Virus record (IMG/VR): IMGVR_UViG_2571042438_000008
Origin: a virus
Lineage: Duplodnaviria; Heunggongvirae; Uroviricota; Caudoviricetes
Direction: 5' to 3' (one strand)
Length of the DNA stretch: 47,797 nucleotides
The notes under the pieces were generated by a model. That model was given only the letters and a program-made list of their open reading frames with translations. It ran no database searches and was not told where the DNA came from. Made by a program: the position numbers and the translations under genes. Shown here piece after piece: positions 5,905 through 14,011 of the stretch (its first letter is position 1; every line of letters begins with the position of its first letter).

Positions 5905-6385
5905 GTTTTGATATGTATATGCAAATGGTTTTTTATAATAGATGCACTAAACAAATAAATGCAAAATCACTTTCTTTTATTAAGACTTTCTTTATTTAAC
6001 TTACGCAGGCTTTGCCTGTGAATATGTTCGCCCTTGCAGCGAGCTAAAGCTCGCGCCGGTTCGAGTCGCTACGCTCAAATATACCTCCTCCGGCACTTGC
6101 CGGAGGCATGGAGCAGCCTGATCATCCTTTTCGAAACGGCGCGTTTCGAACTATACAAAATCAATTTATATAAGGCCGAAATAAGGCCTACGGCCGGGCT
6201 TTGCAGGAGGAAGGGGCGAGCCTTATCAATAAACGTCGAGAAATACGCACACAGTAGCCATCAGAACGCGATAAAACGTAAGAAACATCATTTCCTATTA
6301 GACATAGAAAACTTGTCTTATACGCAATGTAGTAAATTTCTATTGCCACATAGGAAAAGATTTCCTACCATCGTAGATATAATAA

Positions 6386-6685
6386 ATGGAGATGGTTATG
6401 GATAAAGATACTGTTTTAAAAATGTTGAATCCGGCTTGTTTAAAAAAAGCGGATGAATGGGAATCTCCTACATGTGGAGAAGTTCGGGCAGTCATTGGCC
6501 TCACCGGAATGAGTGGCTCGCAGTTGGCCAAAAAACTAGGCTTAAAAGATAGTCGCAATGTTCGCAACTGGCAGATGTTAAAGGAGTCCACATCCAGATC
6601 CAGCATTCCGTATGCAGCCTGGGCGCTGCTGTGTTACTTCGCTGGGTTAGGGTTAATCTTCATTGATAACAAAACAGATGTTTGA
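6386..6685 (+). CDS. Small XRE-type HTH protein with hydrophobic C-terminus
   Basis: HTH-like segment LTGMSGSQLAKKLGLKDSRNVRNWQ; C-terminal AAWALLCYFAGLGLIFI. Confidence 0.4.
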   Translation: MEMVMDKDTVLKMLNPACLKKADEWESPTCGEVRAVIGLTGMSGSQLAKKLGLKDSRNVRNWQMLKESTSRSSIPYAAWALLCYFAGLGLIFIDNKTDV

Positions 6686-6972
6686 AACATGCAAATATGA
6701 GGTTTGTTATGGAACTTGTACGCAAAACACGCAAAGAGTTCTTGGACCTGTATCGCATGGGAGCTTTCACTTGTGTTGTGGCTACCCAGGACGAAGTGAC
6801 AAAAAGCTGGCGGCTTTTTGCTCTCAATAAAAAAGGGATTGCCGTTTTCATTGAAAAAGCCCGTGGTGGTATCCGCGAATGGGCGGGATTGAATTATGTG
6901 GCTGATTTTTGCGCAGCTATGGGGATTCGTCGCTGGGAAGTCCATATGCCAGGAGTAAAGTCACAAAAATAG
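6682..6972 (+). CDS. Hypothetical protein, translationally coupled to 6386..6685
   Basis: ORF with 4-nt overlap to the upstream gene; no recognisable motif. Confidence 0.3.
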   Translation: MKHANMRFVMELVRKTRKEFLDLYRMGAFTCVVATQDEVTKSWRLFALNKKGIAVFIEKARGGIREWAGLNYVADFCAAMGIRRWEVHMPGVKSQK

Positions 6973-9239: not shown

Positions 9240-9953
9240 CAGTCTGAAATTTAAATCTTGCTTGGTAGGCTGGATTTAAAAAGACACCTCTTGATTGGGG
9301 CGGCTTTCTTGCGTCTAAAGATAATCAAATCTTTTTGCGCCTGCAACCCCTTTTTTACTGGTGCCCATTTCAGACTCACGCTCGCGTCGTTGTCTTTGCC
9401 ACTTCGTTGGGTTCGGTGTTTTTGGGCGAAGTGGCGCGCGGGTATGCGTACAAGGGGAAAGTGTGCTGACGCAAGCCAGGAACAGCGATCTAAACTAAGT
9501 CGAGTCTGAGAAAGGCAGGAGTGCGACAACTCGCCTGTGCTCTATGAGCAGAAGAAGGTATATCAGACGACCAATGGCATGATTGTGGGCCACAGGGCGC
9601 ACACGGCGGCGAAGCATTGGAAACGATGTGGAGCTATCTGGTGGCATGAGTTCCGGTACTCGATCTCGAGCTTTTTTTGATGCTTTTGAGAAGGGGCCGG
9701 AACTCCGGTAAAGGGCACCCTGTATGGGGGGAGGGGGGGTTGTGTCTGAAGGGTGGCTATCGGTTATGGTGGAATTATGATGCGTAGAAAAGCGAGTTTG
9801 CTGCAAGCTATTGGGTCCATTATTTCTTTGTTTCCGGCAGTTGATCATTTTCGTCATATGGCGACACGTTCGAGTATGGGCTTGGCGCGTGACGCTGACG
9901 CTATTCGAAAGGATTTTCAGAAAGTCTCTGGTGTTGATAAGAGAGAAAAGAGT

Positions 9954-9971
9954 AAGGGGCCGTAGCCCCTT
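9954..9971 (-). terminator. Hairpin after the antirepressor gene 3' end
   Basis: AAGGGGC-CGTA-GCCCCTT stem-loop; the minus-strand transcript continues into a U-rich tract. Confidence 0.4.
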
Positions 9972-9975
9972 GTAG

Positions 9976-11175
9976 TTATGGTCTGCTTTTCTGTGCCAGC
10001 TTATCAGCACATGTTTTTATCAGATCCTGTAGTGTCCTGGCTGGCAGGTTTGCATCCAGTACGCTGAGTATGCTGTTGTGATCTGCTTGGTCGACTACTT
10101 TGCCTGTCGGTGGTAGTAGCTTGAGCTGAGGATTCAGGTTTTCGTCAAAGCTGATAAGTGCTCTGGCGTTTCTGAGCAGATCAAGAAGTAAGGCTGATAT
10201 CACATTTTCCTGAGTCATTGCTGGCAGACTTAGCGCCGCTTTGGTTTTCCCTGTTGCCTTGTCAAACTCCTTGATTAGTTCCTTCCTGTAGTTCGGTTCC
10301 GTTAATAGCCGATTATGCTCTGTTGCCGCGCGGATAATCGTTTTTTCCTGGTATAGTCGTTTAGCCAGATCACGCTCGTACTGTGTTTTTAACACGCTGC
10401 TGATAGCGTTAAAGGCTTCAATGTAGGCCAGCTTGATATCTTTCACGCCTGGACCGTCGATGCTCTCCATGAGCAAGGTAAATCCGTCTTTTGTCATGCG
10501 ATAGATTGTTATTTCGCGGTCGCTTCCTTCCAGCGGTCGTTGCTCTTTAAAGAAGTGACGCGCCGCAGCCGTGCGAGGAATGCGTAGCGCATCGATGGCC
10601 ATAACGATGGAATTGTTTGTGGTGCTGAATGCCTGGGCAACATCGGCTGAGGTTGTGAGTGGCTCGTTGTTGCACACTTTAATGTAAAACATCGGTTTGG
10701 CGTTGAGCGTATCGACAACCTCACGAGCATTGCTTGGCGAGACGGTTACGGTCGCGGCCGTTTGCGCGTTCCGGCTGAAATAGCAGTCTTCCAGCCGTTC
10801 GAACACATCCCACGCTTGGTTAGTTTCAAGCATTTTGGCGTGACGTGCAGCCCCGCGTTCTGTCCAGAGAATGAGGGAGCGGGCTTTCGGGGAAATTTGT
10901 AACCCTCTTAAAGATGGTTGCACATTTTGTGAGTTACTTAAAGTAACCCGCAAATTTTGTGAGTGACTTAAAGTCACTCGCAAAGTTTTTAACTCATCGC
11001 CAGCCACTTTGAAAAAATGCTTTCCTTCAATAAAGCGGTTTGCGTTACGTGAGTAATTTTTTTTGATGTTATCAACGTCTGTGCCGTATAGCTTTGCCAG
11101 TAGTTCAGTAGTGATAACGGGGATCTGGTTATGCAGGATAGGCTGTAGGGTGTTAACGGTCGGAAGCGTTTTCAT
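9976..11175 (-). CDS. Antirepressor-like protein (ORF6N/KilA-N-like N-terminus plus Rha-like domain)
   Basis: N-terminal VITTELLAKLYGTDVDNIKKNYSRNANRFIEGKHFFKV and a central Rha-like segment, as recalled; 399 aa. Confidence 0.65.
   Translation of the reverse strand: MKTLPTVNTLQPILHNQIPVITTELLAKLYGTDVDNIKKNYSRNANRFIEGKHFFKVAGDELKTLRVTLSHSQNLRVTLSNSQNVQPSLRGLQISPKARSLILWTERGAARHAKMLETNQAWDVFERLEDCYFSRNAQTAATVTVSPSNAREVVDTLNAKPMFYIKVCNNEPLTTSADVAQAFSTTNNSIVMAIDALRIPRTAAARHFFKEQRPLEGSDREITIYRMTKDGFTLLMESIDGPGVKDIKLAYIEAFNAISSVLKTQYERDLAKRLYQEKTIIRAATEHNRLLTEPNYRKELIKEFDKATGKTKAALSLPAMTQENVISALLLDLLRNARALISFDENLNPQLKLLPPTGKVVDQADHNSILSVLDANLPARTLQDLIKTCADKLAQKSRP
10924..10983. repeat. Two tandem 30-bp repeats inside the antirepressor gene, each carrying a palindrome (GAGTTAC-TTAAA-GTAACCC; GAGTGAC-TTAAA-GTCACTC)
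   Basis: Units 10924-10953 and 10954-10983 differ at 3 positions, two of them compensatory for the inverted repeat; a degenerate third unit lies at ~10893-10923. Confidence 0.7.
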
Positions 11176-11399
11176 TTTGCACCTCCCATAACTACTTTGG
11201 TTACGAGGGAGATTTTTGCGTCAGAAACAGCGTTATCGTTGCTGGCGATGCGCATAGCTTCGCGCTCGATGATTTCAGTCAGGCGGAATTTATCGGCGTA
11301 TGAGGCTTTCTTGAGAAGGATCTTTACGAGGTTGACGTAATAGTCATGGGGTAGGTTTGTCATTGTGATATCTCCAGTATATGGAACTATCACCGCCAT
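11172..11399 (-). CDS. Small protein upstream of, and overlapping, the antirepressor gene
   Basis: 75-aa ORF with a 4-nt overlap to the antirepressor start. Confidence 0.4.
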   Translation of the reverse strand: MAVIVPYTGDITMTNLPHDYYVNLVKILLKKASYADKFRLTEIIEREAMRIASNDNAVSDAKISLVTKVVMGGAK

Positions 11400-11658
11400 T
11401 CGAGGCTAATCAAATGGTGGTGAGCCGTACAGGGTTAGCCTTACCGGACACAATGACGAACCGGCGCGGATTTCTCCGCCCCTGTACGACCCACCATAAT
11501 TTGGGCGTAACAGTGCTCTACGCATAAAAAAACCGCTAACGCGGTATGCGCCATCGTGTTATTCAGGAGGCTAATCCCGGCCGTAGATTTTGCTACGGCT
11601 CGGAAAGTGTCCACCAATGGCGCATTTATGTCAATACGGCGGGATTTTAACAGAGACA

Positions 11659-11673
11659 ACCACATAGCGTGGG
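11659..11673. promoter_or_regulatory. Degenerate operator-like dyad ACCAC-ATAGC-GTGGG upstream of the antirepressor operon
   Basis: 9/10 arm match to the ACCAC-N5-GTGGT dyad. Confidence 0.3.
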
Positions 11674-12116
11674 TTTATTGGTAGGCAGAAACAAAAAAAC
11701 CGCCCTATTGAGGACGGTTCTTTCGTGCTGATCGGATTCGCGGTCCTTTCAGCATTACGTTGTTGTATAAACAACCACGCAAGCACAAGCAGCAAGTTAA
11801 TTTTACCCAAAAGGTAATAATAGTCCACTATTATGCTTCAAAAAATTGTGGTTCTTGTTGTGCCTGCAAACTCACAGATTGTGGGTAGGTTACTGATTTT
11901 GTGAAAATAAACGAGTTTTTTCGTTTAATTTCTTTCCTATTACTAATCTTAAAATAATCGTAAAATACCTGTGGACCTTCCCGCCGATTCGCACCCGGGC
12001 ACCGACTTTAGGGGAGGATTCTCCGTTGCCGTACATGCAAGCACAAGCAGCCGTGCTTGCTCTCGCGTTGTTTTCGTCGGTGGGGATGCCGTGAAACGGC
12101 CTGTAAGGGCCATACA

Positions 12117-12239
12117 ATGAAAAAATACTGTATGTGTATTTTTATCGTTGTTACTGGGGCTTTGTTTACGCCACATGGGGAGGGTTGGAAGATTACTGAT
12201 AACGCTCTGAATGTGACGATAAACATTAGCAGCAAGTAG
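12117..12239 (+). CDS. Small hydrophobic peptide (40 aa; MKKYCMCIFIVVTGALF...)
   Basis: ATG 12117 in an otherwise ORF-poor, hairpin-rich region; followed 7 nt later by a strong intrinsic terminator. Confidence 0.3.
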   Translation: MKKYCMCIFIVVTGALFTPHGEGWKITDNALNVTINISSK

Positions 12240-12245
12240 CGATTA

Positions 12246-12268
12246 GGCCCCTTCGGGGGCCTTTTTTT
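12246..12268 (+). terminator. Rho-independent terminator
   Basis: GGCCCC-TTCG-GGGGCC stem-loop followed by T7. Confidence 0.8.
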
Positions 12269-12278
12269 ATGGCTGAAT

Positions 12279-12461
12279 TTAAACGCTGGAGCGCATTAAG
12301 CCTTTCAGAACTGCTTCACGTACCCATTCTGGCCTGGTGGATAGCAGGGCAAATAAGCAGCCAGCTTGCAGCCGTTTGAGGTCGGTTAGACGAGTTTTCA
12401 GTAACCGTGTATATTGTTGCTCGGACATAACAAATTCCCCTTGTTGTGTCGCGACGGCCAA
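12279..12461 (-). CDS. Hypothetical small protein downstream of the partition genes
   Basis: 60-aa ORF co-oriented with parA/parG; weak. Confidence 0.3.
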   Translation of the reverse strand: MAVATQQGEFVMSEQQYTRLLKTRLTDLKRLQAGCLFALLSTRPEWVREAVLKGLMRSSV

Positions 12462-12490
12462 CAGTTGGCGCTGGAGGCCGTCACCTTCTC

Positions 12491-12739
12491 TTACTTCTGG
12501 TTGTATTGAGCCTTGAGTAACTCAAAAGACTTTGTCAGCACTTCTTTCAATGACATATCCATTGAGCTGGCGAACGTTTTGTACTCGCGTTTAAATTCAG
12601 GGTCGACGTTAAACGCCATTTGTGCCCCACCTGATTTGGTTCTGGTTGGCGTTTCAGTCGGGTCGAAAACCTGCGGTTGTTCGATCGATGGCGGTACGCC
12701 TTTGCTGTTCTTCTTTGGTGGTTTTGATGGTGCGGCCAT
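12491..12739 (-). CDS. ParG-like ribbon-helix-helix centromere-binding protein
   Basis: 82 aa; basic N-terminal tail (PSKPPKKNSKG); C-terminal FNVDPEFKREYKTFASSMDMSLKEVLTKSFELLKAQY resembles the ParG/RHH family; directly downstream of parA. Confidence 0.5.
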   Translation of the reverse strand: MAAPSKPPKKNSKGVPPSIEQPQVFDPTETPTRTKSGGAQMAFNVDPEFKREYKTFASSMDMSLKEVLTKSFELLKAQYNQK

Positions 12740-12782
12740 GTGTATCCCCTCTTATATAAATCTATAAAACTATAATTATATA

Positions 12783-13451
12783 TTATGCGGCAGTAGTCAG
12801 AGCCTCAAGCTGGTTGATAATCCCCTGAATAACGTCGTCTGCCTTTTTGCGTGGCGCAACGTATGAGCACTCAATGAGGCTTAAGCCCTTATCCTGAGCT
12901 TTGCTCAGAGCTGGCTTGTGGGGAATGTACTTATCGACAACAAAGTATGGCGTATTAGCCAGGTACTCTTGGGCTTCAATATAGTCAGCTTCGTTTTCAG
13001 CCGCGCCGGAAAACACCATGCAAATTTTCTTGATTGGTACACCCTTTTTAACGATGCCGTGAGCAGTGTTAACGGTGGTTTCCAGGTCATCGGTAGAGAA
13101 TCGGGTTGGCAAAATAACCATATCCAGAAATTCAGATAGCTTCGGTACTGATTCAGATGCGTAGGCACCGCCATCGACGATAACCAGGTCGTATACTTCT
13201 GATTCGATGATTTTCTGGACTTGTGATGGTGTGCCGCACGGCTGCGCCGCGATTGCTGGTTCGATATTGTTGGCCATTCTGCGTTGTACCCAACGCGTTA
13301 CCGTTCCGTTAAGCACATCCATATCGATCAGGCATACATTCCAGCCAGCCTTTGCATAAGCAACTGCTAAAGCACGGGCAATTGTTGATTTGGTTACGCC
13401 GCCTTTTCCGTTGAAAATACCTACAGAGATAGTCATTTGTCGAGGCTCCAT
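12783..13451 (-). CDS. parA: ParA/ParF-type partition ATPase (type Ib)
   Basis: Deviant Walker A GIFNGKGGVTKST; ~220 aa; the true start may be the ATG at 13436, which has a GGAG RBS. Confidence 0.85.
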   Translation of the reverse strand: MEPRQMTISVGIFNGKGGVTKSTIARALAVAYAKAGWNVCLIDMDVLNGTVTRWVQRRMANNIEPAIAAQPCGTPSQVQKIIESEVYDLVIVDGGAYASESVPKLSEFLDMVILPTRFSTDDLETTVNTAHGIVKKGVPIKKICMVFSGAAENEADYIEAQEYLANTPYFVVDKYIPHKPALSKAQDKGLSLIECSYVAPRKKADDVIQGIINQLEALTTAA

Positions 13452-13586
13452 GTGTTTGGTTATATAATTCTATAAATCTATATTTATAGAACGAGGTAAG
13501 CATAACCAACTTTTTGGCTGATGAAAAGCGTTTTATATAATTATATAAATCTATAATCATATAAGCGGGCGTTAGCCCGCTTGCAG

Positions 13587-13961
13587 TCAGAGGTCAGCTA
13601 TCGTTGATATCAGTTGATTTGCTAGCTGTCGCTGTTTACGTGAGAGGGTTAGAGCAGCTTCTGAGCGGTCGCTAAGAGGGGGGGTTTCATCAAGAATCAT
13701 GAGGCATACAGAAATAATAGCCCTGTTATATGCCATCAATGGCTGGCACAGCTTCGATACCGCTGGCACATCGTATTGTAAGGCCGTTTTGAGGCAGACT
13801 TTTTGTTCTGATGCCAGATGAAGGATAGATTCTATCCAGTCGATATCTTTCTCATTATCAATGATTTGGCATAACATACACTCAATCGCTATGTTCAACG
13901 CTTGGATTTCGATTCCAGCAGTGATCAGAGTTTCGTTTTTATTGGCTGTATGTAATTCCAT
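13587..13961 (-). CDS. Hypothetical protein encoded immediately downstream of the repressor gene
   Basis: 124-aa ORF; operator dyad 13997-14011 lies between it and cI; hairpin 13564-13581 after its stop. Confidence 0.45.
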   Translation of the reverse strand: MELHTANKNETLITAGIEIQALNIAIECMLCQIIDNEKDIDWIESILHLASEQKVCLKTALQYDVPAVSKLCQPLMAYNRAIISVCLMILDETPPLSDRSEAALTLSRKQRQLANQLISTIADL

Positions 13962-13996
13962 GCGTAGCCTCTTTTATACTTTTACATGTTGTCAAA

Positions 13997-14011
13997 ACCA
14001 CAAAATGTGGT
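13997..14011. promoter_or_regulatory. Operator dyad ACCACAAAATGTGGT
   Basis: Perfect ACCAC-N5-GTGGT between the cI stop and the 13961 start. Confidence 0.5.

Follow-up and report, generated by a model that had tools for sequence, protein, structure and literature searches.

We analysed a 47,797-nucleotide stretch of viral DNA (IMG/VR record IMGVR_UViG_2571042438_000008; hereafter the window) and found that the region beside its partition genes very probably carries a complete timPR type I toxin-antitoxin (TA) module on a temperate phage-plasmid. The timP/TimR pair of Salmonella is an experimentally characterised type I TA system (PMC7667032, PMC11228461, PMC13000454): the RNA ryfA was identified in 2020 as the mRNA of TimP, a toxic inner-membrane protein of 38 amino acids, which is repressed by the divergently encoded small RNA (sRNA) TimR, formerly STnc2070 or RyfB (PMC7667032). 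In E. coli K-12, the corresponding locus is annotated as timR (b4811), ryfA (b4440) and timP (b4812). The family assignment of the peptide and the two RNAs, the conservation and covariation of the regulatory helices and the mismatch between plasmid and chromosomal seeds were all computed for the window and its relatives.

A type I TA or small-RNA locus had already been proposed here from the nucleotide sequence (the original prediction). This reading was right, as illustrated by a full-length match to RF00126, a peptide homologous to TimP and a TimR homologue upstream, and the peptide, then assigned to no nameable family, belongs to timP/TimR (formerly ryfA/ryfB). The bounds proposed at that time, 11890-12268, included the timP promoter and mRNA but missed the antitoxin gene. 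When both strands of positions 9500-14000 were scanned permissively with Rfam (E-values up to 1), neither hok/sok nor any of the other type I toxin RNA families suggested earlier as a check (ldr, tisB, ibs and sho) was matched, a result that applies to families with an Rfam model.

The timP mRNA and the toxin peptide

The plus strand of the window from 11971 to 12267 matched RF00126 with 141.8 bits (gathering score 80; E = 1.6e-37) over model positions 1-296 of 296, and the scores of its relatives ranged from 134 to 174 bits. Standard pairs were found at 70 of the 81 model base pairs, and the minimum free energy (MFE) of the mRNA had a z-score of −3.96. All relatives contain a −10-like hexamer (TAATAT, TAACAT, TACTAT, TACAAT or TATTAT) at an equal offset from model position 1, conserved within a spacer that is otherwise divergent.

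The small open reading frame (ORF) of the original prediction was recovered exactly, running from ATG at 12117 to TAG at 12237-12239 and coding for 40 amino acids (MKKYCMCIFIVVTGALFTPHGEGWKITDNALNVTINISSK); it spans nucleotides +147 to +269 of the mRNA. The strong plus-strand terminator was confirmed as well: a 7-bp stem with six G-C pairs (12245-12262), followed by T7, starts 5-6 nt past the timP stop codon instead of the 7 nt given before. On the minus strand, the same hairpin (12245-12268) lacks a U-tail, so that transcription continuing from the par operon would yield an RNA antisense to the whole timP mRNA, which, as a speculation, could add another layer of repression on timP.

The peptide shows an MKK n-region, a hydrophobic core of 14 residues and a polar C-terminus. 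It aligned end to end with K-12 TimP by BLASTP (36-38% identity, E = 4e-8), and the family NF040796 (toxic_TimP), its sole NCBIfam match, covered residues 1-40 of 40 with 23 bits and an E-value of 7e-5. The mean Kyte-Doolittle hydropathy of residues 4-17 was 2.36, versus 2.34 for K-12 TimP, with matching profiles, and the residues M1, K2, C7, I8, V12, G14, A15, L16, L31, S38, S39 and K40 (window numbering) are invariant with chromosomal TimP. The ORF was intact in all relatives, with ratios of nonsynonymous to synonymous substitution rates (dN/dS) of 0.08-0.48 in 14 of 15 pairwise comparisons. The phage-borne peptides form their own subgroup, which is marked by MKKY..., GAL, GEGWK and N.LNVTIN.S.K. 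A profile search of proteins returned almost only TimP of Escherichia/Shigella, and phage-type peptides appeared only in unannotated Logan/ENA assemblies; the back-translated peptide pattern, run on genome contigs, yielded seven chromosomal loci only, all from Escherichia/Shigella. A TimP alignment matched 96 stretches of such contigs by pattern, of which none passed tblastn owing to the shortness of the peptide. TimP matched no PHROG family and gave no PADLOC match.

Other reading frames across the locus were dismissed, namely a 60-amino-acid ORF with a TTG start from 12057, in frame with timP, and three minus-strand ORFs of 75 amino acids; all four overlap conserved RNA helices and are unannotated in every relative. 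One metagenomic ENA sequence (P0067, 72 amino acids) contains a deletion that joins an upstream reading frame in the 5' untranslated region (UTR) to the C-terminal 26 residues of TimP, and is probably either a natural loss-of-function allele or an assembly artefact.

The antitoxin RNA and its pairing with the timP mRNA

The putative antitoxin starts with a seed at its single-stranded 5' end, continues with two internal hairpins and ends in a terminator hairpin (11693-11724) that has a U-run. It aligned with K-12 timR (b4811, 100 nt) with 74 of 107 columns identical (69%) and the same three-hairpin layout, and it folded with an MFE of −40.3 kcal/mol (z = −5.35 versus shuffles). The core GACCGCGAATCC is conserved and present in all relatives. 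The −10 hexamer of the TimR promoter-like site ends 6 nt ahead of the first base of the seed, and divergent relatives show a −10 of the GGGTAAAAT or GGGTAAGAAT type at an equal distance to the seed; the transcription start site (TSS) is putative. A match to ColE1-type RNAI over the TimR gene (RF00106, 26.7 bits versus a gathering score of 47, E = 0.058) was rejected; it recurs over TimR in a more distant relative (L019) and reflects the generic shape of several hairpins plus a terminator. Weak Rfam matches to Atu_C8, PhrS and WT1-AS were below their gathering scores and were also dismissed.

The repeated element and the hairpin noticed in the original prediction are the antitoxin-seed/target pair and stem-loop 2 (SL2) of the timP mRNA, the published TimR binding site. 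With slightly corrected coordinates, GCAAGCACAAGCAGC occurs exactly at 11779-11793 and 12037-12051 and lengthens to 18 nt with one mismatch (11776-11793 versus 12034-12051). None of 1000 shuffles of the segment 11600-12300 attained a 15-nt exact direct repeat, the maximum being 14 nt, reached once. The downstream copy forms the 5' arm and the loop of the hairpin at 12037-12060, in which GCAAGCAC (12037-12044) pairs with GTGCTTGC (12053-12060) around an 8-nt loop. The first 18 nt of TimR form an 18-bp helix, including one G-U pair, with timP nucleotides 64-81, and the energy of this seed/target duplex was −35.9 kcal/mol, versus −16.0 ± 3.2 kcal/mol for shuffled targets. The corresponding pairing comprises 20 bp with timP nucleotides 64-83 in K-12, and in Salmonella the 5' end of TimR shows an 18-nt complementarity to the timP 5' UTR within SL2 (PMC7667032, PMC11228461). 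The target in the window thus has the same position as the TimR site mapped experimentally in SL2 of Salmonella timP (PMC11228461). When the complete 5' UTR was searched, without bias, for its longest ungapped helix with the minus strand of the upstream 650 nt, the result fell at timP nucleotides 64-86 in every system tested.

The pairing varies between lineages in a concerted way. In a comparison of eight systems, cognate helices were 17-21 bp long, versus 6-11 bp between clades, and two further IMG/VR haplotypes (L026 and L027) formed helices of 14 and 12 bp at the same timP site. At least seven phage-borne seed/target haplotypes were distinguished, in which seed and target change together: the repeat copies of near relatives co-vary (AAGCAGC, AAACAGC, AAGCGG), and distant relatives (L019 from Logan, and IMG/VR sequences) carry wholly different yet matching seeds and targets, for example CAGGTTAGTGCTTGCAT, CTGGTTAAGGCTTGCAT, TGCTACCAGCACTT and GCTTACTTGTGC. 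Cognate pairs had duplex energies of −36 to −39 kcal/mol, whereas plasmid versus chromosomal pairs reached only −17 to −21 kcal/mol in either direction, which equals the shuffle background; therefore, the TimR of the host should not silence the plasmid toxin. The duplex energies of the three closest plasmid haplotypes differ by just 2-6 kcal/mol, and these probably cross-react. All energies refer to the seed against its site, because a duplex calculation with full-length RNAs ignores intramolecular structure and is hence meaningless. A 17-nt imperfect repeat (11881-11897 and 12184-12200), of which one copy lies in the non-conserved spacer, was treated as chance.

Two side observations concern the antitoxin. 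The sequence AGCAGCAAGT occurs at 11787-11796, just upstream of the putative TimR start, and again at 12228-12237 at the end of the timP ORF, where it represents the codons S-S-K and the start of the stop codon. Were TimR to start a few nucleotides earlier, pairing with the 3' end of the ORF would be possible as well; coding is the probable reason for the conservation of this sequence, because the K-12 ORF likewise ends with AGCAGCAAGTAA. In addition, 78 nt upstream of timP, K-12 contains a second gene resembling TimR (L007, 2278..~2182, minus strand; ~NC_000913.3 2653681-2653777), with the core GGCCGCGAAC and a terminator and fold like those of TimR, which was not in the returned feature table. 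Its seed CGCUGAGACGCGCUUGC fits the timP target of the Shigella flexneri type perfectly and mismatches the timP of K-12 itself (best helix 11 bp with three G-U pairs). Possibly, this gene is what was formerly called 'ryfB', or it is left over from the tandem ryfA1/ryfA2 duplication.

Conservation of the translation-control structures

Translation of Salmonella timP needs a 7-bp pseudoknot between upper SL1 and SL3 (sites 1 and 3) and an SL4-opening helix formed by sites 2 and 4, and binding of TimR to SL2 destabilises this active fold (PMC11228461, PMC13000454). The equivalent elements of the window are listed in Table 1. Pairs were counted in an alignment of eight sequences, five phage-borne and three chromosomal. 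The pseudoknot consists of Watson-Crick pairs only in the window and was 100% paired in the eight sequences; it reads CGCUGGC/GCCAGUG in K-12 and CACCGAC/GUCGGUG in the window, with two pairs changed on both sides and one pair changed on one side. The 5-bp helix between sites 2 and 4 was also 100% paired, with one compensatory pair, and in SL4 GGCCU (12098-12102) pairs with GGGCC (12107-12111), with compensatory changes across the family. Over the structure including the pseudoknot, 92.9% of the cells were paired, versus 37-47% after sliding the partners by 1-3 columns.

Table 1. Positions of the timPR elements and of the adjacent RNA elements in the window.
Feature	Position	Strand	Basis
C4 antisense RNA	11413-11501	−	Rfam, 70.8 bits
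isrK-like element	11526-11612	−	Rfam, 68 bits; overlaps a sub-threshold c4-a1b1 match (36.7 bits)
TimR-like antitoxin sRNA, ~101 nt	11693..11793	−	similarity to K-12 timR, fold
TimR seed 5'-GCUGCUUGUGCUUGCGUG-3'	11776..11793	−	minus-strand reading of the upstream repeat copy
TimR promoter-like site, TGGACT-16-TAAAAT	11800..11827	−	sequence
Probable timP −10 hexamer TAAAAT	11961..11966	+	read from sequence; putative
timP mRNA (Rfam ryfA), ~297 nt	11971..12267	+	RF00126 match
SL1, with pseudoknot site 1 CACCGAC at 12000-12006	11977..12016	+	model pairs
Site 2, GCCGU	12028..12032	+	complements site 4; function from PMC13000454
TimR target within SL2 (hairpin 12037-12060)	12034..12051	+	helix with the TimR seed
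SL3, with pseudoknot site 3 GUCGGUG at 12076-12082	12062..12095	+	model pairs
Site 4, ACGGC, 5' flank of SL4	12096-12100	+	complements site 2
SL4, whose 3' arm hides the Shine-Dalgarno sequence AAGGG (12105-12109)	12096..12113	+	model pairs
timP ORF, 40 amino acids, small hydrophobic TimP-like protein	12117..12239	+	BLASTP, NCBIfam, hydropathy, dN/dS
timP intrinsic terminator	12245..12268	+	corresponds to the terminal hairpin of the Rfam model

The host element and the distribution of timPR

The module is carried by a ~48-kb phage-plasmid of the myovirus type, which is present in about 72 of the 5426 E. coli genomes that are complete. This element codes for RepA, ParA, a full myovirus gene set, an XRE/cI-like repressor, an ORF6N/Rha antirepressor and a TA system of the RelE/HigB type. 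The minus-strand RNA elements at 11413-11612 lie upstream of two ORFs of the same strand, 11172-11399 for a 75-amino-acid icd-like protein (phrog_7886) and 9976-11175 for the 399-amino-acid ORF6N/Rha antirepressor; C4, the isrK-like element and this antirepressor operon represent a P1-type immI region. As originally noted, the region is poor in ORFs, with none longer than 75 amino acids from 11400 to 12279, because it is filled with RNA elements: C4, the isrK-like element, TimR and timP turn these 900 bp into a cluster of four RNA elements. The timP gene converges on the par operon, which codes for an 82-amino-acid protein and ParA, with a gap of ~10 nt. A 60-amino-acid ORF (12279-12461, minus strand) downstream of the par genes showed a weak match to phrog_22022 (E = 0.0013) and is unannotated by the Prokaryotic Genome Annotation Pipeline (PGAP).

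Among the complete E. coli genomes, timPR was present in 72 and par in 71, nearly always on plasmids; therefore, the module is fixed in this lineage. The par genes are at least 95% identical throughout, whereas the identity of the timPR region drops to ~80%. The latter is 100% identical in many E. coli plasmids of 47-49 kb and 80-83% identical in other plasmids, such as those of strain ATCC 25922 and of E. albertii, as well as in three Yersinia phages (vB_YpM_39/41/44). Alignment of these relatives showed conserved TimR and timP genes and a divergent spacer. In blastn searches, 73 of 74 hits were located on plasmids, and no link to the chromosomal locus of E. coli emerged. The identical plasmid pSCU-204-5, as annotated by PGAP, shows no feature across the 1.1 kb holding timPR, and timPR is annotated in none of the RefSeq plasmid and GenBank phage records that we fetched. 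The locus is left unannotated because the peptide scores below the NF040796 cut-off.

The surroundings of the module vary. C4/isrK adjoins timPR in 10 of 11 motif-carrying IMG/VR contigs. In a 5.7-kb Logan contig (L019, ERR1302954), timPR lies downstream of the Rha gene and beside a transposase of the IS91 family, on the opposite side of immI instead of in the interval from immI to par; the module has hence changed place inside the regulatory region that these elements carry. In an 89.9-kb IMG/VR contig (L026, positions 1907-2605 and 5969-6829), timPR is flanked by the genes of a Zeta toxin and of a Rep3 initiator, with no C4/isrK nearby; this suggests that plasmid-like elements of a second type also carry a timPR of the phage clade. 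The ATCC 25922-type plasmids and the Yersinia phages contain an extra gene for a helix-turn-helix protein of 180-190 amino acids between immI and TimR (L002 1953-2525, plus strand; L001 4395-4934; L004 956-1528), which is not present in the window. Because the 3' end of this gene runs into the TimR terminator, the latter is probably bidirectional.

Comparison with known toxin-antitoxin systems

The locus resembles the chromosomal timP/TimR systems in the length and fold of the mRNA, the ORF position (about +147 here and +145 in Salmonella), a peptide of 38-41 amino acids with a signal-like hydrophobic N-terminus, and a divergent sRNA of ~100 nt that pairs through its 5' end with SL2 at nucleotides ~64-83. 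It also shares the Shine-Dalgarno sequence locked in SL4, the 7-bp SL1-SL3 pseudoknot, the helix between sites 2 and 4, and Rho-independent terminators of both genes. It differs from them in location, as the chromosomal copy lies between sseA and sseB and the one in the window on a phage-plasmid beside par and immI, and in a peptide of 36-38% identity that carries the C-terminal motif GEGWK..N.LNVTIN.S.K and scores below the NCBIfam cut-off. The seed/target pair does not match the chromosomal one, and the spacer between TimR and timP measures ~178 nt versus ~400 nt for the annotated K-12 timR.

Like hok/sok of plasmid R1 and its relatives srnB and pndA, timPR is a plasmid-borne type I TA system with a small membrane toxin, a stable and highly structured toxin mRNA and an unstable antisense RNA, the last two features being expected here by analogy. 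The hok/sok system is the model for both post-segregational killing and T4 exclusion, the two roles that we consider for timPR. However, there is no relation in sequence or structure and no Rfam match in the window. Furthermore, hok works with a leader ORF that overlaps (mok), with 3' processing and with an overlapping antisense RNA encoded in cis, whereas timP needs no processing, has no functional upstream ORF (PMC11228461), and its antitoxin is encoded separately and acts through a short seed. Closer in arrangement are tisB/istR-1, zorO/orzO, shoB/ohsC and dinQ/agrB, which also consist of divergent, non-overlapping genes with an antitoxin pairing over ~18-20 nt far upstream of the ribosome-binding site in a structured 5' UTR; yet these systems are unrelated in sequence, use mRNA processing and/or ribosome standby sites, and are chromosomal. 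The phd/doc system of P1 is another TA system on a low-copy plasmid prophage, situated in a maintenance region with a partition system, but it is of type II, acting protein on protein, whereas the antitoxin of timPR is an RNA.

Proposed mechanism and role

Because the locus belongs to the timP/TimR family and every published regulatory element is conserved, we propose the following mechanism. The plus strand would give rise to a timP mRNA of ~297 nt, whose 146-nt 5' UTR is predicted to fold into four stem-loops, with SL4 hiding the Shine-Dalgarno sequence of the 40-codon toxin ORF. Translation would need the SL1-SL3 pseudoknot and the SL4-opening helix between sites 2 and 4, as in the Salmonella system. 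The minus strand would produce the divergent TimR of ~101 nt. By pairing with SL2 (12034-12051), the first 18 nt of this RNA would destabilise the active fold and prevent translation. With TimR lost, TimP would be made and enter the inner membrane via its signal-like N-terminus, which would render the membrane leaky. The toxicity, the membrane targeting, the translation switch and a lower stability of TimR than of the timP mRNA would carry over from Salmonella.

From its context, the module may aid the upkeep of the plasmid prophage, either by killing or slowing cells that lose the element or by aborting infections by other phages. We tentatively favour post-segregational stabilisation as its role, and other or unknown functions account for what these two leave over. 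Stabilisation, in which post-segregational killing would require TimR to decay faster than the timP mRNA, fits because a stable toxin mRNA and an unstable antitoxin would be combined on a low-copy plasmid prophage, next to par, rep and TA genes, with a seed that the host cannot supply. Defence as the main role is the chief alternative and appears rather unlikely, although it requires the same molecular anatomy: an invader or a shut-off of host transcription would stop TimR synthesis, the more stable timP mRNA would be translated, and the membrane would be damaged before the phage cycle is completed, protecting the resident prophage by abortive infection or superinfection exclusion. Such a role is suggested by the exclusion of T4 by hok/sok of R1 (cited in PMC13000454) and by the frequent location of prophage defence genes beside immunity regions, as timPR abuts immI in 10 of 11 IMG/VR contigs. 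The fast diversification of timPR (80-83% identity versus at least 95% for the adjacent par) is also the pattern expected of conflict loci; however, it affects the RNA seed/target and the promoter spacer, not a sensor. Moreover, TimP gave no PADLOC match, chromosomal timPR of Salmonella was without effect on P22 infection (PMC7667032), and the par, rep and other TA neighbours fit maintenance equally well or better.

Two further explanations were considered. The ~300-nt RNA could act mainly as a regulatory sRNA with an incidental or weakly expressed ORF, since work on uropathogenic and avian pathogenic E. coli has treated RyfA as a regulatory RNA in stress resistance and virulence (PMC8205139, PMC13188913, PMC10664665), a toxic peptide is described as not yet demonstrated for E. 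coli ryfA (PMC10664665), and the 5' UTR is the most conserved part. We regard this as improbable, as every relative has an intact ORF that retains the n-region and the hydrophobic core of TimP, and 14 of 15 pairs show a dN/dS below 0.5. Furthermore, SL4, the pseudoknot and the helix between sites 2 and 4 serve translation control and are all kept via compensatory changes, and the locus retains its own antisense RNA, the seed of which co-evolves. A dual function as sRNA and toxin mRNA is possible. An inactive remnant from the host chromosome would agree with the missing RefSeq annotation and the score of the peptide below the family cut-off, but is very improbable. With blastn hits on plasmids in 73 of 74 cases and a peptide of 36-38% identity, the locus is no recent chromosomal copy; both genes, the terminators, the −10 hexamers and all regulatory helices are conserved while the spacers diverged; and nearly every member of the lineage carries the module. 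No frameshifts, stop codons or seed/target mismatches were seen at the loci examined.

Several points weigh against an active timPR module with a role in plasmid maintenance or exclusion. Deletion of timR in Salmonella led to TimP synthesis without slowing growth, and deletion of timPR affected neither persisters nor P22 infection (PMC7667032); because of these results, the killing at native levels that both roles require is unproven. A partition system and a type II TA system are already present on the element, and an extra stabiliser is therefore not obviously needed. The peptide misses the NF040796 cut-off with 23 versus 45 bits (K-12 TimP, 86.8 bits), and its C-terminal half is unlike chromosomal TimP; by sequence, it is significantly homologous to TimP, yet outside the curated subfamily. 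Both TSSs are putative and were deduced from promoter-like hexamers and the ends of the Rfam model. The plain MFE fold uses sites 1 and 3 as a nested long-range helix instead of forming SL1 and SL3, so that the exact fold of the timP mRNA is model-dependent; for this reason, we tested the Rfam and published structure by pair counting. Finally, the rows showing covariation come from few lineages, and the counts support the structure without being independent trials.

Significance

The timPR family is known, with an entry in Rfam, and the locus is not a new kind of system. The divergent mobile clade on phage-plasmids, its position in maintenance regions and the mismatched, fast-switching seed/target pairs appear to be unreported. 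Our literature search found nothing linking timP or ryfA to phage-plasmids or phage-like plasmids, although its coverage was incomplete and an earlier mention is possible. It is conceivable, if somewhat doubtful, that a mobile timPR clade has been recruited by temperate phage-plasmids of Enterobacteriaceae as an addiction and/or exclusion module under RNA control, with the hypervariable seed/target of 12-21 nt serving as a specificity code that insulates it against chromosomal TimR and possibly against rival timPR modules. If true, this would be the first natural setting in which killing by TimP has a selectable function, and there would be no anti-addiction by the chromosomal TimR of the host.

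In practical terms, a toxin gene of widespread E. coli elements, among them the plasmid of the reference strain ATCC 25922, escapes current pipelines because the peptide is below the NCBIfam cut-off and absent from PHROGs. The natural haplotypes, together with the compensatory changes in the pseudoknot and in the helix between sites 2 and 4, independently support the recently proposed RNA structural switch. For the chromosomal system, the discoverers of timPR observed no phenotype in growth, persisters, biofilms or phage infection, and they did not speculate on its role (PMC7667032). The timPR modules of phage-plasmids offer a tractable natural setting in which to learn what TimP is for.

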